Translations under genes and position numbers: made by a program
Part shown: piece by piece, positions 23,830-44,100 of the stretch
Layout of the letters: each line of letters begins with the position of its first letter
How positions within the stretch are numbered: position 1 is the first letter of the stretch
Source: an uncultured Chitinophagaceae bacterium
GTDB lineage: Bacteria > Bacteroidota > Ignavibacteria > UBA10030 > UBA8401
Reading direction: 5' to 3'
Assembly: GCA_964409765.1 (NCBI GenBank)
Contig: CAYPEM010000015.1
Location: forward strand, 8,713 to 72,712
DNA length: 64,000 nt
Notes under the pieces: model-generated
Told to the model about the DNA's origin: nothing
Databases searched by the model: none
What the model saw: only the letters and a program-made list of their open reading frames with translations

Positions 23830-23874
23830 CTACAATAAAAAACCCGAAGTGAATCTTCGGGTTTTTTATTGTAG
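23830..23874. terminator. bidirectional rho-independent terminator (perfect 20-bp-arm palindrome)
   Basis: CTACAATAAAAAACCCGAAG-TGAAT-CTTCGGGTTTTTTATTGTAG. The GC core is CCCGAAG/CTTCGGG with U-runs on both strands. It lies between convergent genes. Confidence 0.85.
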
Positions 23875-23885
23875 TTAAGCAGTAA

Positions 23886-26800
23886 TTAAAAATCCCCGCC
23901 AAGCGAGAAATAATATTTTGGCGTCGAGAAACCATCTCCAGTGTATGACCACGCAACATCAATCTTCAACGGAAGCCCAAACAGGAACATTCGTAGTCCC
24001 ATTCCGGTGCCGATCAACAGATCTTGAGTGACTGTTTTTCCGGTTGTATCTTTTCCAAAACCTCGAAACATGCTTTCTTTTGTCCACGACGATCCAACAT
24101 CAACAAATGTTGCACCGGTAATATTTCCAAGCGCTATAGGTACGCCACCGGTAACAAGATACTGGATAAATGGATATCGTAATTCATAGTTCACTAACGC
24201 GAACTTTGTTCCATTCTTTACATTATAATTATATCCGCGCAGCGGCAGGGCCGGTGTAAGAAACGCAAAATCTTCAATATTCCTGATCGGGATTCCGCCA
24301 TTCTCAAATTCGCGGTTGATCCATCCATCCGTTCCGCCGATAAAGAACTGTTGCGCATTTTTTCCTACGCTGATTCCACCTGAATACCTCATGACGAATG
24401 AATACGATTTCCAAAATTTGAAATATTTTCGATAGTCAGCAGTATACGTTTGAAAATCAAGTGAATTGCTTCCTAACGATGGACTGATCATTGCATTGAT
24501 ATTATATCGTGACCCATTGTTTGGCGAGGTATAACCCCACAAGGTATTATCATGCACATAACTGAGTGAAGGAATGAACATTGTTCTAGTTTGGCGAAGT
24601 GAATCGAGGCCAAAATCGAGGTTCTCTTTTGAAAGATTCATCCACGAAAGACCAAATTCAAGACGGTTAAACCGATCAAGAGGTAATGAAGCCGTTCCTG
24701 AAAGTCCCCATGTCCGAAAACGATACAATGATACTCCAATTGAAGGATCTTCAAGATATAAAAACCGTGCACTGTGATATCCCTGAAATCCATAATCAAT
24801 GAATGCCGGTAGATAAAAATATGCCAACACATAATCACTGTTCTTCAGATCGAGCAAAAGGTTCGTGAGAAAATATATTTGATGATCACCAAGCATATCG
24901 CTAAATGACATCATCGTTGTTCCTTGCACGCCGTAGAATGTACTGAATGCAGCGTTTCCATAGACGATATCAGGTGAAAAATTCAATTTATATTTGTTGA
25001 CCACAAAATTACTGTCGTCATCTACATTACCGGCAACGGCGATTGGTTTACTATTGACGGTTGGAAGTTCATCACTTTCTCCAGATTTTGCCGCATCATC
25101 GGTGAAGACATAATTATCAAAATCGATCCTGACTTTGTCGCCGTAGACACTTGCGGTATCTTTTTTCGATTCGGTTGCAGTGACAACAGTTACCGTGTCG
25201 ATATTTTTCTTCGATATGGGATTTTTCCGTTTGATATATTCAGTCGGCTCTAATTGCGTTTCAGTCAATTTTTTTTCAAATGGAGTTTTCAAGAGGAACA
25301 GATCAAATCCCGCTTTATTTAAAGCAGAATATGCCAGTTTATTTCCATCAGCAGACAGAGACAATTGGTACACTCCTGTTATCGAATTAGTGATTGGTCT
25401 GTCCTCCTTGGTAAGAAGATTTCGTTCATAAACATTTCCGGTGCCATTCCTGTCTGAAACATATAATAATTTATTGCCATCAGATGATGTCACCGGCGAT
25501 GTTTCATCACTATTCTCATCGTTGGTGATCCGTGTGATGCTTCCGGTTGTAAGATCATATGAATAGATATCCAATTGTTTATAATCGAACCGCACAATTC
25601 TAAAGTTTGCCGGAAGATTGTTCGCCGATGTATGCTCTCTTCGGTCGGAAACAAAATAGATCTTTTGACCGTCAGATGACCACGTTGGATCTGAATCAGA
25701 AAACAAATCGTTTGTTAAATTTGTCAGCTTTTTCGAAGCTATTTCATATGTATAAATATCGGATTGATAGGATGTGTTTCCGACAAAAACAAGTTTGTCG
25801 CCCTGGTGAGACCAATCAACCGTAAAGATTCCTTCCAATTCCAGTTCGATCTTTTCCTCGTCCCCTTCGTTCACATCAATAAGATAAATTGCATCGCGTT
25901 CACCGCTTTTGGCGGCAATTGCAATTCGTTTCCCGTCCGGCGACCAGCTCATTCCTGGTGTGAGCAGATGCAATTCTTCAAAATTATTCGTCCGCTGACC
26001 ATCCAGTACTTTGGTGATCGTATTGTCTATTGTTGACATCACATACACATCAAAATAATCATCCCGGTCCGAGATGAATGCAACCTTATCGCCCTGTGGG
26101 GAAATTGCCGGACTGGTGTTATAAAAATTATTCTCTTTAATGTGATTGGTCAATCGCGTAGAGAAATCTTCCGGTTCTTCCCGTTTTGCAATATCGGGCC
26201 AATACATTTTCTTTTGTTCTTTCTGCCACCGTTCAGATAATTCCTCTACTGTTAAACCAATAGAGCTTTTAAATCCTGCATCAACATTGCGTAAACTTTT
26301 CACTTTGTGTAAAATTTCACTGATCTTTTGTTCCCCATATTTGTTGGCGATATAATAGAATACCGACTGTCCTCCACGATAGGCAAAATAACCCCCTAAA
26401 TATTCTATCGGGGGAAGGTACGTATTGAGCGTAGCATCACGAATGAACATATCAGAATTGATATCCCATCGTAATGCTTCATATTCAGCAAATCCCTCGC
26501 TGATCCACAACGGCAGCTGGATTCGTATATTGTTTGAAATAATTGACTGAATAGAACCGCCATAGAACATATCATTCATCACCGCATGAACCAATTCATG
26601 ATGGATCACATGGCGAAATTGTTTATAATTTCCTTCAAATGGAATGACGACACGGTTCTTGAATAATTCTGTTACTCCGCCAATGCCTTCTTCAAGATAT
26701 TCACCGATAACATTGGTCTGTTGAAAATCGTTATGCGAGTTGTAAACCATGATCGCCACACGATTATTCAGCTGATAGCGCATTGTTTTGCTGATTGATG

Positions 26801-27017
26801 CATAGGCGGATTCTGCCGCAACAGCCGTGAAATTCGCGATTGGTGCTCCATCCTGATAAAAATAAATGTCGAAATGATCGGTTTGAATGAATGACCAATT
26901 GAAGCGTTTATATTGGACTTTATTCTTGCCAAAATTTCCCTCTTGAGCTGTCATTATTGACGCACAAATCACAATGAGCAACAATATTTTTCTCATATCC
27001 ACCTCGTTGTTCTTCAT
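23886..27017 (-). CDS. outer-membrane Omp85-family beta-barrel fused to an HExxH peptidase-like domain and a TolB-like PD40 propeller
   Basis: 1043 aa (alternative ATG at 26996). It has a signal peptide and HELVH at 26586-26600, with a downstream WISEGFAEY (gluzincin-like). Six PD40-like repeats are present (SPQGDKVAFISDRDD, WSPDGKRIAIAA, WSSDGQKIYFVSDR, SSDGNKLLYVSDRNG, SADGNKLAYSA). The C-terminal barrel carries Omp85 hallmarks LPLRGYNYN, NYELRYP, GLRMFLFGLPLKIDVAWS and a terminal F. Confidence 0.75.
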   Translation of the reverse strand: MKNNEVDMRKILLLIVICASIMTAQEGNFGKNKVQYKRFNWSFIQTDHFDIYFYQDGAPIANFTAVAAESAYASISKTMRYQLNNRVAIMVYNSHNDFQQTNVIGEYLEEGIGGVTELFKNRVVIPFEGNYKQFRHVIHHELVHAVMNDMFYGGSIQSIISNNIRIQLPLWISEGFAEYEALRWDINSDMFIRDATLNTYLPPIEYLGGYFAYRGGQSVFYYIANKYGEQKISEILHKVKSLRNVDAGFKSSIGLTVEELSERWQKEQKKMYWPDIAKREEPEDFSTRLTNHIKENNFYNTSPAISPQGDKVAFISDRDDYFDVYVMSTIDNTITKVLDGQRTNNFEELHLLTPGMSWSPDGKRIAIAAKSGERDAIYLIDVNEGDEEKIELELEGIFTVDWSHQGDKLVFVGNTSYQSDIYTYEIASKKLTNLTNDLFSDSDPTWSSDGQKIYFVSDRREHTSANNLPANFRIVRFDYKQLDIYSYDLTTGSITRITNDENSDETSPVTSSDGNKLLYVSDRNGTGNVYERNLLTKEDRPITNSITGVYQLSLSADGNKLAYSALNKAGFDLFLLKTPFEKKLTETQLEPTEYIKRKNPISKKNIDTVTVVTATESKKDTASVYGDKVRIDFDNYVFTDDAAKSGESDELPTVNSKPIAVAGNVDDDSNFVVNKYKLNFSPDIVYGNAAFSTFYGVQGTTMMSFSDMLGDHQIYFLTNLLLDLKNSDYVLAYFYLPAFIDYGFQGYHSARFLYLEDPSIGVSLYRFRTWGLSGTASLPLDRFNRLEFGLSWMNLSKENLDFGLDSLRQTRTMFIPSLSYVHDNTLWGYTSPNNGSRYNINAMISPSLGSNSLDFQTYTADYRKYFKFWKSYSFVMRYSGGISVGKNAQQFFIGGTDGWINREFENGGIPIRNIEDFAFLTPALPLRGYNYNVKNGTKFALVNYELRYPFIQYLVTGGVPIALGNITGATFVDVGSSWTKESMFRGFGKDTTGKTVTQDLLIGTGMGLRMFLFGLPLKIDVAWSYTGDGFSTPKYYFSLGGDF

Positions 27018-27041: not shown

Positions 27042-29228
27042 TTAATTTCTTCCGTTCTTTTTCTTTTTTCTTTTTTTCTCTTCTTTAATATCCGTTTCTA
27101 CCAAGACAAAATCAATCTGTCTTCTCTCCGGTGTGACTTTTGCAACCTTTACAGTTATCGAGTCCCCAAGGCGAAGTTGTTTTCCGTGGCGTTCGCCGAT
27201 CAAAGCATATTGTTTCTCATCGAACACATAATAATCATCATTCAAGTCTCTGACATGCAGCATTCCTTCAACCAGCATATCGTTGATCTCTACAAATATT
27301 CCATACTGAATAACTCCGGATATGATCCCCTGGAATTCCGCACCCAAATGTTGACGCATATATTCCACTTGCATTACTTTAATAGAATCACGCTCCGCTT
27401 CAGCAGCAACTTTTTCCCGTTCTGAACAATGTTTACACATTTCCGGAAGGTCTTTATTGTGCTGATGTTTCCGTTTTTCACTCATACCGCCGGTATATTC
27501 CCATAACAGCCTGTGCACTATCAGGTCCGGGTAACGACGGATCGGTGAAGTGAAATGAGAATAATGATCGAATGCCAATCCAAAATGACCAATATTATCT
27601 GCTGAATAAACAGCCTTTGCCATGCTTCGCAGCGCGACTTCGTTAATAAGATTCTCTTCCTTTGTGCCGTGAACCTGCAATAAAAGCTGCTGTAATTCTT
27701 TTGACGTTGCCATTTGTGATAAGTTCAACTTATAACCGAACTTTCGTACAAATTCTTCTAGTGTCTTTAGTTTTTCTTTGTCCGGAAGATCATGGATGCG
27801 ATAAACAAACGGAAGCTGTTCACCATCTTTTTCCAATGTTGAAATATGTGCAGCAACCGTTTGATTGGCAAGCAGCATACATTCTTCCACTAACTGATTA
27901 CTTTTTAATCGTTTTTTTATGAAGATCTCAACCGGTTTTCCTTTGTCATCATATTTGAACTTTGCCTCTGGTGAGTCGAAATCAATACTCCCATTTTTCA
28001 TTCTTTTAGCACGAAGGATCTTTGCAACTGCCCATAGCTGTGTCAACTCTTCCGAATATTCCCCTTTTTTATTATCAAGGATTGTTTCCACTTCCTCGTA
28101 TGTAAAGCGCCGTTTTGAATTAATGACCGTTCTGGAAAATTCATATTTTCGCACTCTTCCTTTGTCCGTGACATTCATGAAAACAGAATATGCAAGACGA
28201 TCCTGATTGGGGACCAAACTGCAGATGTTGTTCGACAATTTCTCCGGAAGCATCGGTATTACTTGATTTGCCAGATAAACGCTTGTCGCGCGTGCGAATG
28301 CTTCCTGATCAATAATACTTCCTTCGGTAACGTACGCACTAACATCAGCAATATGTACTCCGATACGAAATGAACCTCCTTCAAGCAATTCTATTGAAAG
28401 AGCATCATCAAAATCTTTTGCATCGTGCGGATCGATCGTAAGAATGATCTCTTCTCGAAGATCCAATCGTTTCTGCAATTCCTCATTTGAGATTTGATTT
28501 GGAATTTCAGCAGCAGCCTGCTCCACCTCTTTGGGAAATGAGGTAGGCAGACGATACGATTGAATCACAGAACGTAGTTCAACAAATGGATCGCCTGCAG
28601 AACCTAATGTCTTTATAATACGTCCTTCAGGATTTTTATAAGGGTCTTCCCACTCAAGCAGTTCAACGAGAACTTTATCACCTGATGTTGCACCATTCAG
28701 ATCTTCAGGAGCAATATAAAAGTCTCGATGCATTCGCGGATCGTCCGGAAGGACAAAATAAAAATTCTTACTGCGCTGCAATGTGCCGCCGAATTCAGTG
28801 TGTGCACGGGAAATAACTTTCAGAACTTCTCCTTCGTTCACCGGAGCACTGTCTTTTTTTGCTTTTCGTGAGCCAAAGACTGCAACTTCAACGGTATCTC
28901 CATTAATTGCCGTTCCCATTGATTGTTTATCGATATAAACATCACCGCGGCTTGTAGTTACCGTGCCATTACCACGTTTGTCGATTACAATGGTACCGTT
29001 GATCTTATTGGAAGATTCCGCAAGATGGTACCCTCGGGCTTTCGTCCAACGTAATTCGGCATCATCCACCATCGTGTGAAGTACTTCGCGCAGTAATTGA
29101 AAATCTCTCTCGCTGGTCACACGTAATTGCCGACGTAACTGACGCGATTTATAACCGTCTTTGGAATGCTTTGCAAAGTACGAAAGCACCTGTTCACGCA
29201 GTTGTTCTGTTTTCATTTGATTGGTCAA
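27042..29228 (-). CDS. rnr: ribonuclease R
   Basis: 728 aa. Has cold-shock/OB domains and an RNB catalytic core (TIDPHDAKDFDDALS, RLAYSVFM, HFGLAFDHYSHFTSPIRRYPDLIVHR). An S1 domain (FQGIISGVIQYGIFVE) and a Lys-rich tail follow. Confidence 0.95.
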   Translation of the reverse strand: MTNQMKTEQLREQVLSYFAKHSKDGYKSRQLRRQLRVTSERDFQLLREVLHTMVDDAELRWTKARGYHLAESSNKINGTIVIDKRGNGTVTTSRGDVYIDKQSMGTAINGDTVEVAVFGSRKAKKDSAPVNEGEVLKVISRAHTEFGGTLQRSKNFYFVLPDDPRMHRDFYIAPEDLNGATSGDKVLVELLEWEDPYKNPEGRIIKTLGSAGDPFVELRSVIQSYRLPTSFPKEVEQAAAEIPNQISNEELQKRLDLREEIILTIDPHDAKDFDDALSIELLEGGSFRIGVHIADVSAYVTEGSIIDQEAFARATSVYLANQVIPMLPEKLSNNICSLVPNQDRLAYSVFMNVTDKGRVRKYEFSRTVINSKRRFTYEEVETILDNKKGEYSEELTQLWAVAKILRAKRMKNGSIDFDSPEAKFKYDDKGKPVEIFIKKRLKSNQLVEECMLLANQTVAAHISTLEKDGEQLPFVYRIHDLPDKEKLKTLEEFVRKFGYKLNLSQMATSKELQQLLLQVHGTKEENLINEVALRSMAKAVYSADNIGHFGLAFDHYSHFTSPIRRYPDLIVHRLLWEYTGGMSEKRKHQHNKDLPEMCKHCSEREKVAAEAERDSIKVMQVEYMRQHLGAEFQGIISGVIQYGIFVEINDMLVEGMLHVRDLNDDYYVFDEKQYALIGERHGKQLRLGDSITVKVAKVTPERRQIDFVLVETDIKEEKKRKKKKNGRN

Positions 29229-32200
29229 AAAGTAAAGCGGTAGAAAAGACGTGCCGTATATGTTGGCCGCGCTTGAATAATATCATAGTTTTCTATTTTT
29301 CGTTCAACCTCCGCCATAAAGCTGCGGTTCTGTCTGCCTAAAATAGGATATTGGATACTGATATTCGTGTTGTTCAAATCAGAAAGTACGTTTCCACCCA
29401 CGTTAAAAATAGCGGTCAATACTTCACCGCTGATATTCAGATCTGGTTTTGCCCGTTCAACATTCCGCAATTCGATCCGTTTCACGAATGGAATATTATT
29501 CTGCTTTACGAATTCCATCACAAGATCGGATAACATACTGTTGATGAACGTTCCGGTCAACGTTGATGTTAATTTCTCCCCTAATTTATTACGATCGAAA
29601 GCGGAAAGATCTTCTCGAAATTGTCCCGGTGTGTTCGGTGATGATGTCAATAGGAATGCAATGGCATCGTTTTCAACATCACCTTGACGTGGAATTTCGC
29701 GATTACTCTGATCGAGAGTGGCCAAGCCTATCTTCACTTTTGGATTCAAACGATTTCCGGTTATTTCTAATGATACGATAACTCGTTCCAACTCATCACA
29801 ATCCCCGGTCGTAACATTAGCGCTTTTACAATGTGTGCCTTCATACTTTGCAACGATATTCAACTGAGGGTTCTGAGGATCGCCGACAAAGGTCAATGAT
29901 CCGGATGCTTTGAACTCTTTGTAAAATCGATAGTTCGATTCACCGCTAATATTTATGGTTCCTGTCAACTGCTGGCCGGCTTCATCTTTTTTAAGAACCA
30001 TTTTGCCATTCAATTCGGCAGAAAGAGCTTCATAGGCACCAGCGTTTGCATTAAAGATCATATTGATATTAACGTTTCCCTGTGTTTTGATCGTCAACTC
30101 ATATCCAAATCCATCCAAAAAAGTGCGTTCAACTTTTTTGGGGGATATATTCTGTGAAAATGTTCGGGTGATTGTAGCCACACTGAGAGTATCAGAGAAT
30201 ATTTTTGATGTATCATCATAAAAAATAACATCATCAAATCTTGCATTTGATAATGAATTGGTCTGCTGGGTCTGCGGAAATATCAAGGAAGCCTCGCTGA
30301 TCAATACATCGCCGCTGATTCGAGATCGTTCAAAAGTTCCTTCAAAATGTAGTCCATTGGATCCTGTTTGTGCGATAAGGGTTCCAAAAAATGATTGATT
30401 GACTGAACGCGACGCATTCGAAAGCACCAACAGTTCGCCATTTGCTGAGAGGTGGTACTCCGATGGAGAAAATCCATTCATCGCAATATATCCGCTGACA
30501 TTGACCAATCCCGGAGAATAATCATTTTGTGTGTTTGTAATAACAAATTCCGGGAACATGATCTTTTGGTCGCCAAGGGTAACTTTTCCTTTAACCGCAT
30601 ATTGAATTCCTGTCATTTCAAGTTTGAACGAACCGTTCGCAAGAAGAACGGAGCCTTGAAGCGTCGGTTGTTTCAATGAACCTGTCAGGGATATTTCCCC
30701 TGTAACCAAACCGGTTATTTGGTCAACTTCCGGTACAAAAACATCAAAGATCTCTGCGGGAAGATTTTCTGTAACGATGTTTATATTCATTCCGGAGAGA
30801 CTGGTTCTGTCTTCCACTGCCGTAAAGCTGAGATCGATAGGGACATTGCCTTCAAGATTGAACGATCGAGAGATTGTAGTATCCACTCCTTGATGAAGTT
30901 CCACTTTCAATCCTGCATTCTGCTTCGCATAGCGAAATGCAACATCAAGATCCCCAAAATTACTGTTTCGATAGGCAATATTTGTTCCTTCCAACTGGGC
31001 AATAATAACTGGATCCTTGATCGTTCCAGAAATATTTGCAGTTGCATCCACCCTGCCTCCTAAAGCGTATGCTTCCTCCCGGAATTCCGATGAAGTATTG
31101 ACGAAAAAAATATCGGACAATGCAAAATTTTTGATCACTGCATTTGCATTCACAATTCCATGATAATTATACATTCCTTTTACGATAATTTCCTCTTCGC
31201 CACGGATGAACATTGAGGTATCGATCTGAATACCGCTACGGGTTGAAGTAACAACAAATGGGGTTGCATTTCGGATATCAAGTCCTTGATATTTTGCATA
31301 CAGATCGTTGAACGTAAATCGATTAAGGAAATCTGAGATCTCTACCGTTCCTTTGGCGGCTAATGTGATCGTCGTATCAATATCAACGGCGGCATCATAT
31401 GACCCTTGTTGATGATCAAAATCAAAATCAAGTTTTGCCGAACGGAACTTGGTGTTATCAATGTCAAACTCATCGCTGACCAAGTGCATGTTCATTTGAA
31501 GCGAGTACCCTGATTGTATGATTTGAGCAGGAGAGATATTGTTGATAGCATACTCTAATTTTGTATCGTGGAAACGAATGAATGCTGCTGTATCAGCATA
31601 GATTCCGTTCGAGACTGAGATCGTCCCTGTTGACGCTGCTGAGTTTCCGTTACTGCTCAATGTCCCTATCGCTGTTCCAACAATATCCAGTTCAGGAAAT
31701 CTAAAAAATGTTGAAAGAGGTTTAAGATTTTTCATCCGCAGATTATATGAAAGAGATGATTGATTGTTCTTGGTCATATCACCATCCCCGATGGTGTCAT
31801 TCAACACAACTGTCGATGAGTCAAATATTCCCCGCTGATATCCATAAATCTTCTCGAATCCTTTAAGGTGTGATTGAACTGCATCAACGATGTCGGTAAT
31901 TGTAAATGTACCTTCTAACTCACCGTCAACAATCGGCGAGGCAACAGTCAATTTATCGTGGTTTGCAGAATCTTTCAGCCAGGTAAGCAGAATTCTTGCA
32001 CTGTCGAACGATATTCCGTTGAAGTTTGATTGATAAAAATCGATCTTCATATCCGATTGTGCATCGAACAATGATAGATCTTTGCCTGAGCGTGTTATAT
32101 CGAAAGATAATTTGGAAGAGTAATAGTTGTCATTCACAATTGGAGCAAGATCAAGTCCGCGAACTTGAGCAAAGCCATTATATGACGGCATGGTATCATT

Positions 32201-33727
32201 AGTAAAATCGATCGTGGCTTGGGCGAGAATATCTCCGCTTGGTGATTGAATTGAAATATCTCCGTCAATCGTTTTATGATGCGCTTTTAATTCTATTTTT
32301 GACCGATTCAGCGTTATATTTCTAAATGATGATGAATCAACTTCAATTGTCGCATCGGTATTGAGTGTTGCAAGTGAAGTTCCTTCACCTTCAATAAATA
32401 TTCGTGTATTTAATCTGGAGACAAATTCGTTTGATGTAAATACTTTCTCTAAATTGACATTATTTCCTGCCAAAATTCCTTTGTAGTGAATGTTGTCTTC
32501 GGTGATAACCATTTGACCATCAATACTAACAGTTCCCGCAGCAGATTTCATCGTAGAAATAGCCAAAAAATCCAATGGTTTCCCGACAAATTGAAAATCC
32601 ATTGTAATTGGCCCCAAATCATTGTATTCCGGAATTCCAAAGTACGGCAGTAACATTGGAACATCAGGAGGATTTATCACACTTCCTTTCGATACAATAT
32701 TCAATCGTAATTCAACCGGTTGATAGATATTTGAGACCGATCCTGAAAGTGAAAGTGATGTTTTCCCAAATTCTGCAAGGAGTCTCTTGACAGACAGGTT
32801 CTCAAAATTTCCTTCAAATTCTCCCTCAAAAAGTACGTTTCCTTTCAAAAAATCCAATGATGGGAGGAATTTTTGAATGTCGTTTGTAACAATGTTTGAC
32901 GGTGATACGTTCAAAACAACTTGAGAGTGCCTGAGATCGGAAACATCTATAATTTTGAATACATCGATATTCTTCAATTCTACTGATGCTTCAATTAGGG
33001 AAGTGGGGGTTACTATCGTTAATTTTTTTACGGAGCTTTGCTGCTCTGTACGACTAATGTCCGCAGAGAATTTCGTCAATGTAAACTTTTCACGTTTTGC
33101 AATAAAGGAAAGATTCTTAATAGAAACATCCATTGTTTTTGAGGAATATATTCCATTCATTTCCAGATCAATATGTTCAATCTCCATATTGCTGTAATTA
33201 ATCACCGGCTGACCGCTGCGATCCGAATATGTTTTAGTATAGTCCCCTGTAGAATCGACCAGATGAAAGCGGGCATTCGTGATCTGAAGTTTTCTGGCAA
33301 CTATGATGAGTGATGATTCGCTGCTGTCGTCCGGCGTTGTCGATTTCGAAAGGTGGTCCACATTCCAATCGCCATTCTTCCATCGCGTAAGATGGATAAT
33401 AGGATTTTCCAGCTTTAATGAATCAATATTGATTTTATTTCTCAACACACTGATCAGCCGATAATGCACCGAAAGTTTCCCTGCTTCGATAAATGGGGCA
33501 CCATCGATATACATCATGACCGTATCTACTGAAAAACCGGAGAAGAGATTCCCATTGATCTCGCCGATGTAGATGTTTGCGTTGACCTCTTTTTCAAGCA
33601 GTGTATAGATTGTTGCACGGAGTGTACTCCGAAACATTGCTGTTTGCGTAAAGATCACCGTCCCGGCAACCAACAGCACAAGTATCAACAGTGAATAGAG
33701 AAATATTTTTGATACTTTTCTTGTCAT
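29225..33727 (-). CDS. tamB: translocation and assembly module protein TamB (AsmA-like, DUF490 C-terminus)
   Basis: 1500 aa with a single N-terminal TM helix (IFLYSLLILVLLVAGTVIF) and a long beta-rich body. The C-terminal segment LTGTINISGESNYRFYKEFKASGSLTFVGDPQNPQLNIVAKYEG fits the DUF490 pattern as I recall it. There is a 4-nt overlap with rnr and a 1-nt overlap with hldC. Confidence 0.7.
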   Translation of the reverse strand: MTRKVSKIFLYSLLILVLLVAGTVIFTQTAMFRSTLRATIYTLLEKEVNANIYIGEINGNLFSGFSVDTVMMYIDGAPFIEAGKLSVHYRLISVLRNKINIDSLKLENPIIHLTRWKNGDWNVDHLSKSTTPDDSSESSLIIVARKLQITNARFHLVDSTGDYTKTYSDRSGQPVINYSNMEIEHIDLEMNGIYSSKTMDVSIKNLSFIAKREKFTLTKFSADISRTEQQSSVKKLTIVTPTSLIEASVELKNIDVFKIIDVSDLRHSQVVLNVSPSNIVTNDIQKFLPSLDFLKGNVLFEGEFEGNFENLSVKRLLAEFGKTSLSLSGSVSNIYQPVELRLNIVSKGSVINPPDVPMLLPYFGIPEYNDLGPITMDFQFVGKPLDFLAISTMKSAAGTVSIDGQMVITEDNIHYKGILAGNNVNLEKVFTSNEFVSRLNTRIFIEGEGTSLATLNTDATIEVDSSSFRNITLNRSKIELKAHHKTIDGDISIQSPSGDILAQATIDFTNDTMPSYNGFAQVRGLDLAPIVNDNYYSSKLSFDITRSGKDLSLFDAQSDMKIDFYQSNFNGISFDSARILLTWLKDSANHDKLTVASPIVDGELEGTFTITDIVDAVQSHLKGFEKIYGYQRGIFDSSTVVLNDTIGDGDMTKNNQSSLSYNLRMKNLKPLSTFFRFPELDIVGTAIGTLSSNGNSAASTGTISVSNGIYADTAAFIRFHDTKLEYAINNISPAQIIQSGYSLQMNMHLVSDEFDIDNTKFRSAKLDFDFDHQQGSYDAAVDIDTTITLAAKGTVEISDFLNRFTFNDLYAKYQGLDIRNATPFVVTSTRSGIQIDTSMFIRGEEEIIVKGMYNYHGIVNANAVIKNFALSDIFFVNTSSEFREEAYALGGRVDATANISGTIKDPVIIAQLEGTNIAYRNSNFGDLDVAFRYAKQNAGLKVELHQGVDTTISRSFNLEGNVPIDLSFTAVEDRTSLSGMNINIVTENLPAEIFDVFVPEVDQITGLVTGEISLTGSLKQPTLQGSVLLANGSFKLEMTGIQYAVKGKVTLGDQKIMFPEFVITNTQNDYSPGLVNVSGYIAMNGFSPSEYHLSANGELLVLSNASRSVNQSFFGTLIAQTGSNGLHFEGTFERSRISGDVLISEASLIFPQTQQTNSLSNARFDDVIFYDDTSKIFSDTLSVATITRTFSQNISPKKVERTFLDGFGYELTIKTQGNVNINMIFNANAGAYEALSAELNGKMVLKKDEAGQQLTGTINISGESNYRFYKEFKASGSLTFVGDPQNPQLNIVAKYEGTHCKSANVTTGDCDELERVIVSLEITGNRLNPKVKIGLATLDQSNREIPRQGDVENDAIAFLLTSSPNTPGQFREDLSAFDRNKLGEKLTSTLTGTFINSMLSDLVMEFVKQNNIPFVKRIELRNVERAKPDLNISGEVLTAIFNVGGNVLSDLNNTNISIQYPILGRQNRSFMAEVERKIENYDIIQARPTYTARLFYRFTF

Positions 33728-34212
33728 TATTTACTATTTGAAAATCGGTTAACAATTGTTTCAACAATATTCGAAGTAGAACGGTTAGGAACAAATTCAA
33801 TCGTTTGAACTTTGCCCCCCGCTTGTTCAACAACATCTTTTCCAACAATTGCATCGATTGAATAATCAGCGCCTTTAACAAGAATATCCGGAACAACTGC
33901 TGAAATGAGATTCAGCGGTGTATCTTCATCAAAAAGACAAACAGCATCAACGCACCCAAGCTGGGAAAGGATGAATGCACGATCGTCCTCGCGTACAATT
34001 GGACGAAGATCCCCTTTGATCCGTTTCACCGAAGCATCCGTATTCATACCGACAATAAGAATATCACCCATCGATTTTGCTTTTAACAGATATTCAACAT
34101 GTCCGCGATGCAGGATATCAAATACTCCGTTTGTGAAAACAACTTTTTTATCCTGTTGCTTCCACAGTAACCGTTGATTAACCAGTGATATTCGAGTATA
34201 TACGTTCCCCAT
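33727..34212 (-). CDS. hldC: D-glycero-beta-D-manno-heptose 1-phosphate adenylyltransferase (RfaE domain II type)
   Basis: 161 aa. The cytidylyltransferase HxGH motif is VVFTNGVFDILHRGHVEYL; VKGADY is also present. Confidence 0.85.
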   Translation of the reverse strand: MGNVYTRISLVNQRLLWKQQDKKVVFTNGVFDILHRGHVEYLLKAKSMGDILIVGMNTDASVKRIKGDLRPIVREDDRAFILSQLGCVDAVCLFDEDTPLNLISAVVPDILVKGADYSIDAIVGKDVVEQAGGKVQTIEFVPNRSTSNIVETIVNRFSNSK

Positions 34213-34228
34213 GGATCCCTATGTAAAT

Positions 34229-35218
34229 CTATTGTTCAAAAATAGTTGCTCGAAGAATTGCAGGGTCGATCGTAATGATGCCCACTTCGCCGCATACAAT
34301 TCCTCCCGCATAATTGGCAAGCAGTGATGCCTCACCAATCGATGCCCCTGCTGCCAGCATTGTTGTCAAGGTTGCGATCACCGTATCACCTGCACCGGAA
34401 ACATCGGCAACATTTCGTGCATTCGTTGGAATGTGGGTAACGTTTCCGTTCTTTTCAAACAAGCTCATCCCTTTTTCACTTCGGGTCATCAAAATATTTT
34501 CAGCCTGAAGTTTCTCAAGAAGCACTTTCCCCGCAGCCAGTACATCAGCATCATTGGTCAATTTTTTTCCCAATGCTTCTTCGGTCTCTTTTTTATTCGG
34601 TTTGAATACGGTTACATTCTTATATTCAAAAAAATTATTGAATTTTGGATCGATCGCAATGATCTTTTTCTTTTTGTTTGCAAGATCTATGATGCTGCGA
34701 ATCAAATCTTTTATGACGACACCCTTGTTATAATCTTCAATGATAATGCCGTCGATCGAATCGATATTATTTTCGAGAGCGGAGAGTATCTTTTGCTGAA
34801 TATCAACTCCAATATCTTTTTTTTCTTCATTGTCGATCCGTACAACATGCTGGTGGTGGGCAATGACCCGCGTTTTCACTGTTGTCGGTCGAGAATGATC
34901 GGTAATGATACCAGCAGATGCTGCGTTCTGTGATTCAAGAATGGAGCGGAATTCCTTCCCCGAAAAATCATCTCCAACAATTCCGATCAGTAGTGCACTT
35001 GAACCAAGCGATACGATATTATTGGCAACATTTGCAGCTCCGCCTAAACGCGAAGATTCACTCTCTACTTCCACAATTGGCACAGGTGCTTCCGGTGAGA
35101 TTCTATTGACATTTCCCCAGATATACCGATCAATCATCACATCGCCAATGACTGCGATTCGTTTGTTACGTGCATTGGTTAATAGTTCATCAACTCTATG
35201 CTGAGTAATAGCTACCAT
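34229..35218 (-). CDS. hldA: D-glycero-beta-D-manno-heptose 7-phosphate kinase (RfaE domain I type, PfkB family)
   Basis: 329 aa. Contains IAVIGDVMIDRYIWG...RISPEAPVPIV and GGAANVANN. The PfkB C-terminal motif is DVSGAGDTVIATL. Confidence 0.85.
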   Translation of the reverse strand: MVAITQHRVDELLTNARNKRIAVIGDVMIDRYIWGNVNRISPEAPVPIVEVESESSRLGGAANVANNIVSLGSSALLIGIVGDDFSGKEFRSILESQNAASAGIITDHSRPTTVKTRVIAHHQHVVRIDNEEKKDIGVDIQQKILSALENNIDSIDGIIIEDYNKGVVIKDLIRSIIDLANKKKKIIAIDPKFNNFFEYKNVTVFKPNKKETEEALGKKLTNDADVLAAGKVLLEKLQAENILMTRSEKGMSLFEKNGNVTHIPTNARNVADVSGAGDTVIATLTTMLAAGASIGEASLLANYAGGIVCGEVGIITIDPAILRATIFEQ

Positions 35219-38029: not shown

Positions 38030-39040
38030 TTATAAAGAGAGTTGAATAGATAATCTATTCACGTTACCAAAAATTCCAAATGGAGCATACGCATAATCGA
38101 TTCCGGCTGAGATCCCTTCAACCGTATGCCGGATACCGACTCCGGCTGTAAAACCATTCTCATCATTGTTGAACATATATCCCGTACGGACAGCGACAAG
38201 ATTAAGTAATGTATATTCTGCGCCTATATTAATCTGTTCGGGATAGTCACGGGGATGTGTTGCATCAACAGAAAGAAGCAGCTGATCGGCACCTTTATCA
38301 TCTGTTATGAATTCCATAGCATTCATCGAAATTCCAATCCTAAAAATGAGCGGGAGCTGGAATCCTTCACGCTGGAATTTCACTTCTTTGGAAAAATTCC
38401 GAACGCTCATTGCAAAGTTAAGACTTTTGTATCCGGTGTTATACAACATCCCGAAATCAAACGACAGAACTTCAACTGTATTCGAGGGTCGTTTTGAAGC
38501 ATCAGTGATACCGGCAGTAGTAAGAGGAGTTTTGCCAAGATCCTGATGAACAAAATTGATATTGCCCCCGACCGAAAATCGATCGCTCAATGCTCGAGCA
38601 TACCCGGCACCGACAGAAAATGCCGTCGGGGAAACATCACCAAGTTCACTATAACCGTCCGGCTGTGATGGATCCAATACAGTTCCTTCGATCAATCCAT
38701 AATCGACGGTGTGAAGTGAAAAACCGAGAACACCATAGTCTCCGTTAAAAGGTGCAAAACTGAGACTGGCGTGCTGATGATTGATATCCGCAATCCATTG
38801 GGTCGTGCTGAATGCCACATGAGTAAACGATGTCATTCGGGCCATACCTGCAGGATTATAAAACTGTGCCATGGAATTTCCGGTTACAGATGTAACTGCT
38901 TCTCCCATCGCAACTGCCCGGGGGTCAGCAGATACATTCATAAATTTAAAACCTGTCTGAGCAAGTTTCACATTTTCTTGTGCTGGTGTTATACAAATGC
39001 CAACACCCAATAGAAGCATTGCAGTGATTAGTCTCTTCAT
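38030..39040 (-). CDS. PorV/PorQ-family outer-membrane beta-barrel protein (T9SS-associated)
   Basis: About 336 aa from the ATG at 39040 (MKRLITAMLLLGVGICITPAQE). GFKFMNVSADPRAVAMGEAVTSVTGNSMAQFYNPAGMA matches the PorV/PorQ N-terminal signature (xDARxxAMGxA ... NPA). It has an alternating beta-strand pattern and a C-terminal ...RLSIQLSL. Confidence 0.7.
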   Translation of the reverse strand: MKRLITAMLLLGVGICITPAQENVKLAQTGFKFMNVSADPRAVAMGEAVTSVTGNSMAQFYNPAGMARMTSFTHVAFSTTQWIADINHQHASLSFAPFNGDYGVLGFSLHTVDYGLIEGTVLDPSQPDGYSELGDVSPTAFSVGAGYARALSDRFSVGGNINFVHQDLGKTPLTTAGITDASKRPSNTVEVLSFDFGMLYNTGYKSLNFAMSVRNFSKEVKFQREGFQLPLIFRIGISMNAMEFITDDKGADQLLLSVDATHPRDYPEQINIGAEYTLLNLVAVRTGYMFNNDENGFTAGVGIRHTVEGISAGIDYAYAPFGIFGNVNRLSIQLSL

Positions 39041-39062
39041 AATATTTATGGTCAAAAAAGAA

Positions 39063-41135
39063 TTAACGAATGACAATGAATTTTTTAATTGCTCGCTCAC
39101 CCGCAGGGGATTCGATTACTGCAATGTACACGCCACTGACTATAACTTGTTTTGATGATGTGGTAAGATCGTATTGTTCACTTCCGGTTCCATCATTATG
39201 ATCGATGGTACGGATCAATTCACCTAGTTCTGAATAGATCTTGATCGTACAGAATGCCGGAATATTTTTGAATACTATTTTGTCCTGCTCGCTTGGATAT
39301 AAGAATCCGCCGATATGATAAGGATTGGGGACAATTCGTATGTTACTTGCAACCAATGCTGTTGATGCTAAAAGTTTACGGTACGCTGCATCATATGTTT
39401 GAGTGTAATACCGATTGCTTACCAATGCACCGCTTGTTTGACCCACACCGGTATTCTGCGCGGCATCTCCGACAGCAATAATGTAATAATAGTGTGCAAC
39501 ATCCAAAGCTGCTGAGGTATCAGAGAACGATCGTGCAGATGCATCTCCGGAAAATACTTTATGATATGTACTGTCCGATCTCCCGATTGCACGATAGATT
39601 TCAAATCCTTTTAATGCAGGATCAGCTCCGTACGTTTCCCATGACATTTTGATCGCTCCTGCTCCTGAATTGACATTAAAAATTTTTGGCGGAAGAGGTG
39701 GTTGAGAAATTGTGTATCCGGAATTAAAATTTGCGATCGCTCTGCGAAATGTTTTGAAGAGAGAATCCCTTCCGGTATACACCCATTCATTCTTTGTTTT
39801 TGTAATTCCATTGTACGTAATAGGAGCAGCAGGATTTGCCTTGTAGGCTTTACCAATCTCAATGTTTGCTTCACGCGTCAATCCCGAAGCTCCTTCAGCC
39901 ATCACAATCCGAATTTTTTCGCCTGGCTTCAGAGTATACGGACCATAACCGTTGGCGAATGAAAAACCGCCGCCGCCGCCGTCAGAATTTGCTTGTTCGG
40001 GAAATCCATTGAGTCCAACTTTGTCTGCATGACGCGGAATCATATGTCCTTTGCTCATCCATCCATATTCCGATGTCATTTTTCCGTTGTTATACTGACT
40101 ATTGTCTCGATTGTTTCCAGCATCCGAACCTTCGTACGCTGTCGTTGACGGTTGTGCAATATCATCCGTAGTGTCTGTTGCAGATTTGTCAGCATGAAGA
40201 GTTGCAATACCTACGAACTGTGACCCCCCGAGACGTCCAGTCGTATCGGTTTTATCATAGAACGGAGTCCATATCGGTGCACCGATATTGTCATACCCAG
40301 GAGGGAATGTTCCAAATGATGCCTTTCCATGCCAGGAAATTTGAGCACGAATATCGTTATCAAGATTTCCGGGAAAAAATGTCGTTGCAACACCGGGGTT
40401 TGTAGTATCTCCCCGAGTATCGTTCATCGTATTCAAGCCCCACCCAGTCGGATTAATTCCCACTACATACCGAACATCAGCATTCACTGCTAAACGGTAT
40501 TGGAAATAGAAATAAACCCCTCGAAGCGTGGCGGTGTCACGTTTTACTTCTGCTTTATCAACGATACCAACAACACCGGAATTGGTAAAGGTATAGTCGT
40601 GAATGAAATAATTATCATGGAATTGCTGGCTGAATGCATGGATCTTCCTCTGCATCGTAATGCCAATCGATGTATGTACAATATTATCGATCATACGATC
40701 GGATTTGAGCGCAGGGTCAACTGAATCGTTGGTTACTGCAACAGTATACGAAGGATTTCCATCAACAAAAGTTTGCGGCGGTTCATATTTGCTAATCATT
40801 TTAAAACGCGCAGGGAAGAATTCCCCGTCGCCACGAACTCGAGGTCCAATGTGAACTACTTTATGTGCATATGAACCTTGTTGATCCGTAAAATCCTTTA
40901 CTCCAATCCACATCCCCTTCGCAGCCTGCATGTCCTGATATTGATAAATAGACGGCCACCGAAGCCCATTCTGCTGACCATCCAGTTTTCCCTGACTACC
41001 GAGTGCTAATTCAATTTCACTTCCGGGACTCATATAAAAATTAGTAAGGGAACCAACGTGCAGCCAACGAACTTCTTGACCGAGCAGCGATGTTGTGATC
41101 ACGGCGATTGAAATACAAATAGTAATTAATCTCAT
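39063..41135 (-). CDS. secreted protein of unknown function with FN3-like domain and T9SS CTD (VPNPY variant)
   Basis: About 690 aa from the ATG at 41135 (the track TTG start is at 41156), with a signal peptide. I recognise no catalytic motif. FN3-like segment: PPKIFNVNSGAGAIKMSWETYGADPALKGFEIYRA. The C-terminus is IRIVPNPYHIGG ... TIKIYSELGELIRTI ... SGVYIAVIESPAGERAIKKFIVIR. Confidence 0.6.
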   Translation of the reverse strand: MRLITICISIAVITTSLLGQEVRWLHVGSLTNFYMSPGSEIELALGSQGKLDGQQNGLRWPSIYQYQDMQAAKGMWIGVKDFTDQQGSYAHKVVHIGPRVRGDGEFFPARFKMISKYEPPQTFVDGNPSYTVAVTNDSVDPALKSDRMIDNIVHTSIGITMQRKIHAFSQQFHDNYFIHDYTFTNSGVVGIVDKAEVKRDTATLRGVYFYFQYRLAVNADVRYVVGINPTGWGLNTMNDTRGDTTNPGVATTFFPGNLDNDIRAQISWHGKASFGTFPPGYDNIGAPIWTPFYDKTDTTGRLGGSQFVGIATLHADKSATDTTDDIAQPSTTAYEGSDAGNNRDNSQYNNGKMTSEYGWMSKGHMIPRHADKVGLNGFPEQANSDGGGGGFSFANGYGPYTLKPGEKIRIVMAEGASGLTREANIEIGKAYKANPAAPITYNGITKTKNEWVYTGRDSLFKTFRRAIANFNSGYTISQPPLPPKIFNVNSGAGAIKMSWETYGADPALKGFEIYRAIGRSDSTYHKVFSGDASARSFSDTSAALDVAHYYYIIAVGDAAQNTGVGQTSGALVSNRYYTQTYDAAYRKLLASTALVASNIRIVPNPYHIGGFLYPSEQDKIVFKNIPAFCTIKIYSELGELIRTIDHNDGTGSEQYDLTTSSKQVIVSGVYIAVIESPAGERAIKKFIVIR

Positions 41136-41166: not shown

Positions 41167-44100
41167 TTATAGTTCTACTGAAAGTTTGATTCCGAAAAAT
41201 ATTGCCCGTGGATTAAGGAATACAAAATAATCCATGTTCGGCATGTCGATGTATGCTTTATCTTCAAGTACTTTGTCTAATTTCGATTGGTCGGCTTCAA
41301 CCCAAGCACTTCCATTGTACTGCATATATTTTTTTGTTGTCTGATCATAATAAAATGCCGTTGTTGAAGGACTGGCTTCGCTGCTCAAAGATTTTGTTGA
41401 AACAATAGGAATATATGCTGCACCTTCTTTTCGGACATCTCCCGGCGCATCATCTCCGGGAACATTTCCATATTGAAGCGGATCACCGATATCTGCAGGG
41501 AGATGGAGTGATTTCATGTATGCTTCAAAATCTTTTGTATCAACAAATCCATATCCGGAAAAGTTTTTAATGTTCAACGCATTATTCATATCAACAAAAA
41601 GCTGGATGTTTGCAGGACCGAAGTCAATTGATTTGCTGAATCGCAGATCCATGCCCCAGGTATCCCTGTACTGAACATTATTTTCCAATCCTTGTATCGC
41701 ATTTCCTCCGCCTCCAGCCCAAGTAATATATTTTCCGGCCGTCCAATTACCCGTAAGATTCAATCTCCAATCGCCAAGATATACACCATATTCTTTCGGC
41801 GTAAAAACATCAACATTCAATCGAGCATATGGTGAAGGAACCGGTTTAGTTTGATACAGATCTGTTTCACGATTTGTAATTTCGTATGAACGCTGAAGTC
41901 CTGAGCTTTCGTATAATTTTGCATAACCAAATCGACCAACAGTTCTTACCATATACGTATAATTCAAAAATCCTGTATACCACTCTCCTCGGTTTTTTGA
42001 TAAGGTTAATTCGAAACCACGAATATCCTCGTAAGAATTTGGAACTGAAAGGAAATATGCAACATCATTACTACGGCTGACATATTCTATAGTATTTATT
42101 TGATCTGACACATCTTTATAATATCCTGCAACCCGGATCAAAAATTGTTCGAACAAACTATGTTCATATCCTAACTCGTACGCTACTGTTTTGGGGAGCG
42201 GGTTATTTGGATTTGCCAATCGGGTTACTTTATTATCAAACCCGCTTCTTCGAACAAGGAAAAGATTTTCCGGTGTCGGCATTGAATAAAAATGGCCATA
42301 ATTAAAATAAAGTTTGGAATATTCTGTTACCGGAAAAGAGACGCCTAACCGAGGACTAAAAGTTGTTTGGTTTTCGGTATTCACATGTGTCAGCAGTGTA
42401 TCAAGACCCGGTGCTAAAGGACCGGAAAGTGCCTTATCGAACGTTAGAAAATCATACCAGTATCCACCAGGTGCGCTATGGTCCATGCGAAAACCAATAT
42501 TAGCGATCATTCCTTCGTATTCAAATTTATCCTGAATATACAAACCTAAACGTGTTGGATATGTATGCCAAACCGATCGCTGATTGCTTGTCGGTAAACC
42601 TTTGTCATATTGTCCATAGTTTACATTGTTGTCTGTATAGACAAATTCAAAGCCTGATTTCACCTGATGATATTGATTGAGTTGAGCAGTAAAGTCAATT
42701 TTTGACGTGAATGTTGTTACCGTACTTGTATCACGCGAATTGCTGAAACCTAGGCCAAATCGTATTCCTCCATAACCGGTGGTTGGATTCGGGTCTGGAG
42801 TAAAACCAAATGGAGCTTCATCGACATAATAATTGTTCCCAAATTTATAGATCTGCGCCATGTTCCTGTTTGTTCCCGGACTTGTATTGTATTTTGTCCC
42901 AACTTGGTTTAGGCTCGCTTCATAAAAAACAGCCGGTGAGAGAACATGCGTAAATTTTGCGCCATAACTATTTGTTTTGATGACGCTCGGTGCCCAATAA
43001 TCTGTCGCATAAATGCGGGTATCGATATAACTTACTCTATCGAGAACTGACGCAATATCTCCTGCTGTTTTAAATATCCCAGGGTTTCCGGCATTATTAT
43101 TATTCGTACCGGTTTGTTCACCCATGAGTCCCTGTACCATCAGTTTCATTCCCTGACCGATATCAGAAGTAAACTTGATTTGACCTGTATAATCATTATA
43201 TCCGTCTTCCGACAGCGGCAAAAGATACATCGTACGTTGACTTCGATATGAAGCAAAAAATCTTAGATTTCCTAAATACTCTCCGAATGGAACCGGTCCG
43301 CCAACACCGGCATCAATATCATAGTCAGGTTTTGTAATATCACCTTGTTTCCGATGTTGAAATAAAAATAATCGTTGTGCGGCTTCGGGAGTTAGATCAT
43401 TCGTTGGATCATTATCTTTCAATGATGCTTGGGATATAGCATTCCAGCCATCAAACTCCTGATATTGAGCTTGAACGAATTTATCCCATGTACCATTTTT
43501 CGTTCCAACCCAGGCAACTTCTGGATCGATGAATGGTCTAATCCAATACGAATCTTTATTGTAAACCGAAGGACCGAAATGTTTTTGAGTTGCAGGATGA
43601 TATCGGGCAGTAGCACTGACGGAATATTTTTCCGTCGAACCTTCTTTTTGTACAACATTAACAACTCCGGATCGGATATTTCCATATTCAGCATTAAATC
43701 CGCCGGTTTGCACCTGTACATCTTGAACAGAACTGAGACTAATTGAAGTGATGGGAGTATTATTGCGTTCATCGCGCAGCGTCATTCCGTCGATCATAAA
43801 TGCCGTTTGATCTGCATTATCAGAACCACGAATCACAAATCCCGCTTGAATTCCGGCTTGTAATCCGACAACGGCACTGATACTTGTCACCGGAAGTTTT
43901 TGAATTTCATCATTGGTAATATTCGCGGAACTGGAAGAGACATCTTTTTGAACTACCGGCCGGGTCGCAACCACAACAACTTCTTCACCCTGAACAACTT
44001 CTTGATTGAGAGAAAAATTCAATTCGGTGGTTTGATCGATACTTACCCGAACTTTTGTCTGAGTTACAGCTGCAAATCCGAGAGATGAAGCCCGCACCGA

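Follow-up and report, generated by a model that had tools for sequence, protein, structure and literature searches.

A candidate outer-membrane-anchored metallopeptidase of the WD40-like Omp85 subfamily, encoded two genes downstream of tamB in an uncultured member of the Ignavibacteria

The stretch of DNA analysed here, referred to as the window, comprises 64,000 nucleotides of a contig from an uncultured bacterium of the class Ignavibacteria (GenBank assembly GCA_964409765.1, contig CAYPEM010000015.1, positions 8,713 to 72,712). The open reading frame (ORF) at 23886-27017 on its reverse strand, the focal gene, encodes a protein with a signal peptide, an HExxH peptidase-like domain, a six-bladed β-propeller and a C-terminal β-barrel of the Omp85 type. 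As judged from this domain architecture, the focal protein is a member of the already catalogued 'WD40-like Omp85' subfamily, a large and widespread group without a known function; the window adds no new architecture to it. With about as much confidence as doubt, we interpret the protein as an outer-membrane-anchored periplasmic metallopeptidase that would contribute to envelope homeostasis. The first-pass annotation of the window, made from the sequence alone, had proposed a noncanonical partner of TamB and, as the alternative, an independent outer-membrane-anchored periplasmic protease; the alternative is now the best-supported reading.

Structural statements below refer to an AlphaFold2 model built on 42 homologues, which has a mean predicted local distance difference test (pLDDT) score of 75.8 and a predicted template-modelling score (pTM) of 0.66. 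Residue numbers follow the 1043-residue version of the protein. The features of the focal gene are as follows.

23886..27017, reverse strand: the whole ORF, 1043 residues; a probable true start at Met8 (26996) gives 1036 residues.
26943..26996, reverse strand: Sec-type signal peptide MRKILLLIVICASIMTAQ, read from the sequence, to which the N-termini of homologues align; predicted cleavage after AQ.
26148..26942, reverse strand: Peptidase_MA_2 (gluzincin-like) domain, residues 26-290; Pfam 49.8 bits (cut-off 32.4).
26667..26681, reverse strand: GGVTE loop, invariant, upstream of HExxH; low pLDDT in the model.
26586..26600, reverse strand: HELVH, the putative zinc-binding/catalytic motif, residues 140-144 (H140, E141 and H144).
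26481..26507, reverse strand: WISEGFAEY, residues 171-179, with E174 as the candidate third zinc ligand; spacing HExxH-X29-E.
25278..26132, reverse strand: six-bladed PD40/TolB-like β-propeller, residues 296-580 (Pfam PD40, NCBIfam, phmmer, AlphaFold2 and Foldseek).
25023..25277, reverse strand: linker of about 85 residues, unconserved and predicted to be disordered (pLDDT, conservation and POTRA scan).
23889..25022, reverse strand: 16-stranded Omp85-type β-barrel, residues 666-1043, ending in a terminal Phe (PF01103 and Foldseek).
24231..24239, reverse strand: RGY, the loop-6 (V/I)RG(F/Y) motif; R927 and G928 invariant in 42 homologues.
24093..24107, reverse strand: FVDVG, the (F/G)xDxG motif; F971, D973 and G975 invariant in 42 homologues.

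The peptidase domain provides the strongest indication of function. An HExxH peptidase-like domain had been suggested from the motif, and the match to Peptidase_MA_2 bears this out: Pfam scores lie at 45-50 bits, the higher value coming from the isolated domain. In the model, residues 40-290 form a helical domain with an N-terminal sheet. H140, E141, H144, W171, E174, G175 and E178 are invariant in all 42 of the 42 close homologues, and the domain as a whole is the most conserved region of the protein (mean majority-residue frequency of 0.83, compared with 0.69 for the propeller and the barrel). Further from the focal protein, among full-length representatives (at least 950 residues, about 30-50% identity), HExxH is kept together with W..EG.AE in 109 of 113 sequences (96%). 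The retention of HExxH...E in such diverse representatives and the high conservation of the domain argue for selection on catalysis, and the strong conservation of the gluzincin motif set speaks in favour of an Omp85-scaffolded protease that is active in the periplasm. Membership of the M1 aminopeptidase family was considered and rejected. M1 enzymes have an HExxH-X18-E spacing, a GxMEN motif and a WLNEGFA context. The focal protein has X29 in place of X18 and GGVTE in place of GxMEN, with no significant sequence or structure match to the family; the GGVTE loop may be analogous to the GxMEN motif.

The coding sequence probably begins at the second ATG (Met8, 26996) rather than at the ATG at 27017, because close homologues (1034-1036 residues) begin with MKKI... 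and because the ATG at 26996 has a GAGGTGG Shine-Dalgarno sequence in front of it. The 1043-residue ORF with its signal peptide was confirmed in the sequence, and every motif quoted in the first-pass annotation (HELVH, WISEGFAEY, LPLRGYNYN, NYELRYP, GLRMFLFGLPLKIDVAWS and the terminal Phe) lies where it had been placed. The signal peptide ends in ...VICASIMTAQ, with EG following the cleavage site; its Cys residue is not part of a lipobox and is absent from homologues. The focal protein lacks a lipobox and is therefore not a lipoprotein. The first residues of the mature protein include a near-invariant segment, FGKNKVQY (residues 29-36; 26910-26933, reverse strand), which is modelled with a pLDDT of <50 and might act as a docking or strand-exchange element.

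The propeller had been described as six PD40-type repeats, in agreement with both the Pfam PD40 matches and the model, in which residues 300-577 form 24 strands arranged as six blades. Its relatives are TolB structures (phmmer E value of 8e-11; Foldseek TM-score of about 0.5-0.56), and the propellers of homologues also match Pfam Tricorn_N and Tricorn_2nd. The protein is nevertheless not a TolB orthologue: the NCBIfam TolB model TIGR02800 reaches 144.9 bits against a cut-off of 343, with the match restricted to propeller positions, and the N-terminal domain of TolB is absent. Database names such as 'biopolymer transporter Tol' for relatives are over-annotations.

The assignment of the C-terminal domain to the Omp85 barrels, also made in the first-pass annotation, was upheld by sequence profile and by structure. 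When isolated, the C-terminal 380 residues match PF01103 at 49.1 bits (cut-off 24), as do 22 of 40 homologue barrels. The model shows a barrel of about 16 strands (residues 673-1043), for which the best Foldseek match in the PDB is TamA (TM-score of 0.70-0.73), followed by BamA (0.59-0.65); the Foldseek matches to TolB, TamA and BamA have E values of about 1e-11 to 1e-12. By sequence, neither phmmer nor a profile search found PDB relatives of the barrel, the propeller alone being matched (to TolB). The (V/I)RG(F/Y) and (F/G)xDxG motifs, hallmarks of Omp85 barrels, are both present; the other barrel motifs are LPLRGYNYN (residues 924-932), NYELRYP (943-949) and GLRMFLFGLPLKIDVAWS (1007-1024). 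PF01103 is not listed by a full-length Pfam scan of the focal protein, and consequently many database entries of the family carry no Omp85 annotation and go under the name quoted above. Apart from the barrel, no part of the protein is membrane-competent.

No POTRA domain was detected before the barrel, in agreement with the first-pass annotation: Pfam gives no match to PF07244 or PF08479 in the whole protein, nor in the linker scanned alone at E ≤ 10. The focal protein combines a 16-stranded barrel of the BamA/TamA fold, a PF01103 match and both hallmark motifs of the Omp85 superfamily with the absence of a POTRA domain; POTRA-less Omp85 subfamilies are recognized. The linker itself is present, as the first-pass annotation had it, but is better described as unconserved and predicted to be disordered than as strictly low-complexity. 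It is the least conserved region among the 42 homologues (majority frequency of 0.27, gap fraction of 0.43, length of 78-125 residues), and the pLDDT is <50 across residues 601-657. A POTRA domain concealed in the linker was rejected on the strength of the Pfam result, the modelled disorder and the unconserved, length-variable nature of the region.

The Omp85/TpsB superfamily was divided into ten subfamilies by Heinz & Lithgow (2014; Front Microbiol 5:370, PMC4104836), whose profile for the WD40-like subfamily is PF01103 with PF07676 and without POTRA (Table S2). For each member, their Table S3 lists BamA (4k3b) or TamA (4c00) as the best barrel match and TolB (2w8b or 2ivz) as the best WD40 match, and a 'best aminopeptidase hit' column names 1z5h, 4kxd and 4ar1 (aminopeptidase or collagenase peptidase) among others (PMC4104836). 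Three WD40-like members are given for Ignavibacterium album (I0AH41, I0AJC6 and I0AKC8), and three further accessions look like Melioribacter roseus (PMC4104836, Table S3). As interpreted here, the accessions of that table cover Bacteroidota relatives, Myxococcota, some Proteobacteria and spirochaetes (PMC4104836). The subfamily was still counted in 2024 among the Omp85 groups that 'have not been well characterized' (PMC11116518); our literature search found no functional study of it, and the literature searched held no mention of its placement after tamB-rnr in Ignavibacteria. The orthologue in an I. album metagenome-assembled genome (locus L012) is 60% identical to the focal protein. A search of 1.84 billion cluster representatives matched 1746 clusters at E ≤ 1e-30; the best 150 representatives are mostly of about 1000-1100 residues and align end to end.

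In the interpretation that we favour, the Sec signal peptide would export the focal protein and the barrel would serve as its outer-membrane anchor. To our knowledge, N-terminal modules are periplasmic in every Omp85 protein with a determined topology, and the peptidase-propeller module would likewise be located in the periplasm, as in PlpD, a patatin-like Omp85 protein. Conservation of the motifs suggests that the peptidase is catalytically active. Propellers select or gate substrates in tricorn protease and in S9 peptidases; by analogy, the propeller here may select or gate unfolded polypeptides or peptides. The tether of about 85 residues could allow the module to range over the periplasmic side of the outer membrane. 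The role would then be proteolytic housekeeping or quality control on that side of the membrane, with a logic like that of BepA at the β-barrel assembly machinery (BAM), and would not require TamB in the family as a whole; its gene would simply travel, within Ignavibacteria, in an envelope-biogenesis string with hldE and tamB. PlpD provides the precedent for a periplasmic enzyme on an Omp85 scaffold (PMC11116518).

Several observations weigh against this interpretation. HExxH is degenerate in four of the 113 representatives (P0323, P0351, P0356 and P0376, with HGLAK, RELTR, HRLVL and HKLVH), so catalysis is not universal in the family; these four may be pseudo-peptidase variants. No PDB relatives of the peptidase domain were found by phmmer or by a profile search. 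Modelled alone, the domain reaches a pLDDT of only 46.8, and the Foldseek matches of this domain-only model, mostly M1 aminopeptidases, all have E ≥ 0.1 and are non-significant, giving a hint only. The barrel retains the motifs of working Omp85 insertases, which makes its role as an anchor only an assumption. Finally, the synteny and co-variation with tamB described below suggest a closer tie to TamB in Ignavibacteria than a shared operon.

Some of the same observations can be accommodated by a rather unlikely alternative in which the focal protein is a nonproteolytic Omp85 protein with a built-in scaffold: the barrel would act as an insertase or in a BAM-like manner, the propeller, as Heinz & Lithgow (2014) suggested, as a BamB/TolB-like dock, and the HExxH domain would bind substrate without cleaving it. 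A BamA-BamB-like fusion was suggested for the WD40-like Omp85 proteins by Heinz & Lithgow (PMC4104836), the nearest relative of the propeller is TolB, the barrel retains the invariant RGY and FxDxG of functional Omp85 proteins and a few family members have lost HExxH. This alternative has to account, however, for the retention of HExxH...E in 96% of the diverse representatives within the most conserved domain of the protein, which points to selection on catalysis. It also offers no POTRA domain to receive substrates, and BamA is already listed for I. album and probably for M. roseus (BamA-cluster entries I0AGV2 and I6YX12, respectively, assigned by accession block; PMC4104836).

The position of the enzyme domain bears on a second alternative, which we regard as very improbable: a surface-displayed protease, whose N-terminal module would be passed within or beside its own barrel, as in type V autotransporters, and act extracellularly. 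An N-terminal enzyme followed by a C-terminal Omp85 barrel does resemble the original type Vd model for PlpD, and the organism has many secreted proteins, with type IX secretion cargo genes nearby. The enzyme domain of PlpD has, however, been shown to be periplasmic (PMC11116518). At 550 residues and with a propeller inside it, the module makes an unlikely passenger; a POTRA domain is missing, no helix or extended segment is predicted in the barrel lumen and the linker is disordered.

The remaining evidence concerns the genes with which the focal gene is associated. All lie on the reverse strand in the order hldE-I, hldE-II, tamB, rnr and focal gene, so that tamB is two genes upstream and the focal gene is the last of the string, as the first-pass annotation had it. 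The features of the string are as follows.

33727..35218, reverse strand: split hldE (lipopolysaccharide heptose synthesis), opening the string; kinase at 34229-35218 and adenylyltransferase at 33727-34212.
29225..33727, reverse strand: tamB, 1500 residues, with an N-terminal membrane anchor, N-terminal AsmA and DUF748 matches and a C-terminal TamB (DUF490) domain.
27042..29228, reverse strand: rnr (RNase R), immediately upstream of the focal gene; NCBIfam TIGR02063 810 bits (cut-off 598) and Pfam RNB.
23830..23874, reverse strand: intrinsic terminator (20-bp stem, T-run) after the focal stop codon, at the end of the string.

The two hldE genes match NCBIfam rfaE_dom_I (387.8 bits, cut-off 345) and rfaE_dom_II (203.6 bits, cut-off 181.5). 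The overlaps measure 1 nt between hldE-II and tamB and 4 nt between tamB and rnr, and 24 nt separate rnr from the focal gene. The longest rnr ORF begins at a TTG, a candidate start, which overlaps the tamB stop codon (29225-29228). No terminator-like sites were found at the junctions of the string; together with the strong terminator after the focal stop codon, this makes co-transcription of the string plausible on the sequence.

Conservation of this arrangement was assessed in a homologue scan (one genome per GTDB species) that yielded at least 581 relatives, of which the best 80 (48-92% identity), nearly all from Ignavibacteria with two from Kryptonia, were used. Loci with at least 7.5 kb of upstream sequence were taken as informative for tamB (n = 57). 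In 45 of these 57 Ignavibacteria loci tamB lies upstream on the same strand, in two it is inverted and in ten it is absent. In 51 of 68 informative loci rnr is directly upstream of the focal homologue. The tamB-rnr-focal order persists down to 48% identity for the focal protein and about 22% for TamB, and the five-gene order from split hldE to the focal gene is conserved in most of the sampled Ignavibacteria. Interspersed among linked loci in a neighbour-joining tree are at least six separate clades of unlinked ones, so the linkage appears to be ancestral for the orthologue group and to have been lost repeatedly. Upstream of the unlinked homologues lie unrelated genes, such as those for GH31, a TonB-dependent receptor, an S41 peptidase and an amidohydrolase. 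No tamB was found nearby in any of eight contexts of more distant homologues (30-47% identity; these include Coatesbacteria, KSB1, Calditrichia and metagenome lineages) or in the Kryptonia loci. The association with tamB is real but restricted to this class, and we treat it as a lead rather than as a finding.

The string raises the possibility, in our view unlikely, that the focal protein is a partner of TamB, as put forward in the first-pass annotation. In Ignavibacteria it would be the outer-membrane docking subunit, with the last strand of TamB pairing with β1 of the barrel as it does with TamA, and the peptidase-propeller module would replace the POTRA arm beside the groove of TamB. No Omp85 gene other than the focal one was found within 10 kb of tamB in linked loci, and the apparently ancestral gene order is consistent with a partnership. 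TamA is the best Foldseek match of the barrel, and the TamB encoded in the window ends in a conserved, β-signal-like ...RLFYRFTF. In a 2026 cryo-electron microscopy study of TamAB, the last strand of TamB pairs with β1 of TamA and folds inside the barrel, in addition to making POTRA contacts (PMC12800296). Since TamB docks on β1 and in the lumen of TamA, the absence of POTRA domains does not disqualify a partner. The specific form of this proposal, a novel TAM variant (TAM, translocation and assembly module) in Ignavibacteria in which the ...YRFxF strand of TamB docks on β1 of a POTRA-less barrel and couples lipid or protein delivery to proteolysis, is in our estimate improbable.

Co-variation was examined in an exploratory partial distance correlation analysis of ten gene pairs in 44 linked loci, with linear, cubic and rank variants. 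The pair formed by TamB and the focal protein gave the highest partial correlation of the ten (0.51-0.64), whereas taxon permutations reached a maximum of 0.20 in 500 trials. The controls were three cytoplasmic proteins only, however, and rate variation common to envelope proteins could therefore explain the signal. At the level of domains, moreover, the C-terminus of TamB co-varies least with the barrel (0.22), compared with 0.49 for the peptidase domain.

Further points stand against a TamB partner. The loss of linkage in at least six clades and its inversion in two loci have to be set against the conserved order, and the string retains rnr, a gene of unrelated function, equally well. In E. 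coli, TamB also touches all three POTRA domains (PMC12800296). The NCBIfam lipo_TamL model scores 22.7 bits on the focal protein against a cut-off of 400, and over residues 857-1023 only. The family also occurs in Proteobacteria, as we read the accessions of Heinz & Lithgow (2014; Table S3), and most Proteobacteria possess canonical TamA (PMC4494059). Three WD40-like paralogues occur in I. album. The first-pass annotation had called for a search of the source genome for a separate TamA/TamL and BamA; in the cultured Ignavibacteria I. album and M. roseus, POTRA-bearing Omp85 paralogues are listed beside BamA (a probable one in M. roseus) and count against the partnership. They comprise the three-POTRA 'BamA-like(2)' proteins I0AH83 and I6ZXI7 (I. 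album and M. roseus; PMC4104836, Tables S1 and S3) and a one-POTRA paralogue in I. album, I0AL33 (PMC4104836). I7A4X8, in the 'Lipo' (TamL) cluster, is perhaps from M. roseus (PMC4104836). In the 64 kb window itself, no second Omp85, TamA, TamL or BamA gene was found among the ORFs scanned.

With no tamB in the eight distant contexts or in Kryptonia, and at least six unlinked clades within Ignavibacteria, the role of the protein does not depend on TamB family-wide, in keeping with the periplasmic metallopeptidase that we favour. An envelope theme recurs among the neighbours of the family: hldE and tamB in the string, FtsW, Lgt and LptE in the Coatesbacteria locus L083, EPSP-synthase-family genes in L085 and L087, and MlaE in L089. 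If the link to TamB were true, AsmA-like lipid bridges would be able to dock on POTRA-less Omp85 barrels. Otherwise the locus would serve as a caution that a conserved order of genes by itself says little about partnership, since RNase R is retained there to the same extent. Two leads emerge: a peptidase motif under strong selection, and a class-level string with hldE and tamB together with the co-variation with TamB.

The distant contexts and related loci contained further genes. In L083, where the neighbours are FtsW/RodA, Lgt and LptE, a 706-residue protein encoded about 5 kb downstream (L083:8573-10693, forward strand) has a peptidoglycan transglycosylase domain and sub-cut-off AsmA, DUF748 and YhdP-like N-terminal matches. 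Two distant homologues have an EPSP-synthase-family gene, possibly MurA, in front of them (L085:8605-9867 and L087:911-2164). In L089 the homologue is followed, after a 9-nt gap, by MlaE and an ABC ATPase for phospholipid transport (L089:13097-15227, forward strand), which in this single locus is a second link, after tamB, between the family and lipid transport. Three distant homologues are each followed immediately by a gene whose product resembles type IX secretion cargo in its FlgD_ig or Por_Secre_tail C-terminus (L087:5655-6665, L088:4898-7918 and L090:10369-13335). A barrel-profile search of 1.67 Mb of related loci found other Omp85 genes only in L043, L044 and L049, which belong to one unlinked clade. 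These are DUF5686-like genes (L043:3221-5395, L044:4461-6221 and L049:4203-6095, all on the reverse strand) with PF01103, weak DUF5686 and no POTRA matches; they lie on the strand opposite to the homologue, 4-6 kb upstream of it.

Elsewhere in the window, a long run of genes on the reverse strand (35363-60768) encodes proteins whose C-termini carry sorting domains for type IX secretion (Por_Secre_tail, CHU_C and FlgD_ig). It includes three giant proteins of 1096-1892 residues with cohesin, Ig and β-helix repeats, a PorV/PorP-like gene (38030-39100) and a TonB-dependent receptor gene (41167-44310).

The focal protein can be compared with several known systems. TamA and TamL likewise have a 16-stranded Omp85 barrel with RGY and FxDxG motifs and a gene in a string with tamB. 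They differ in having three POTRA domains where the focal protein has none, and TamL has a lipobox, which the focal protein lacks; the focal protein in turn carries a peptidase domain and a propeller, and its gene is separated from tamB by rnr. The likeness to BepA, a zinc protease of the periplasm that serves outer-membrane protein quality control from its place at an Omp85 protein (PMC8423444), is an analogy in mode of action only, and applies if the favoured interpretation holds: BepA is a separate polypeptide from an unrelated peptidase family (M48) and has a TPR domain, whereas the focal protein has a fused propeller.

TolB of the Tol-Pal system shares the six-bladed PD40 propeller but has an N-terminal domain that is lacking in the focal protein, in which the propeller is instead fused to the barrel and the peptidase domain. 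The M1 aminopeptidases and tricorn-interacting factor F3 share HExxH with a downstream Glu in a W-x-x-E-G-x-A context, and tricorn protease similarly combines a propeller with a peptidase. PlpD from Pseudomonas aeruginosa resembles the focal protein in carrying an enzyme domain N-terminal to an Omp85 barrel; its enzyme domain is periplasmic and its Omp85 scaffold is re-used for a non-insertase function. PlpD retains one POTRA domain, is a lipase and forms a strand-swapped homodimer, whereas the focal protein has no POTRA domain and a peptidase-like enzyme domain. The members of the WD40-like Omp85 subfamily consist of the same three parts as the focal protein, aminopeptidase-like, PD40/TolB-like and barrel, without POTRA, and show no structural difference from it.

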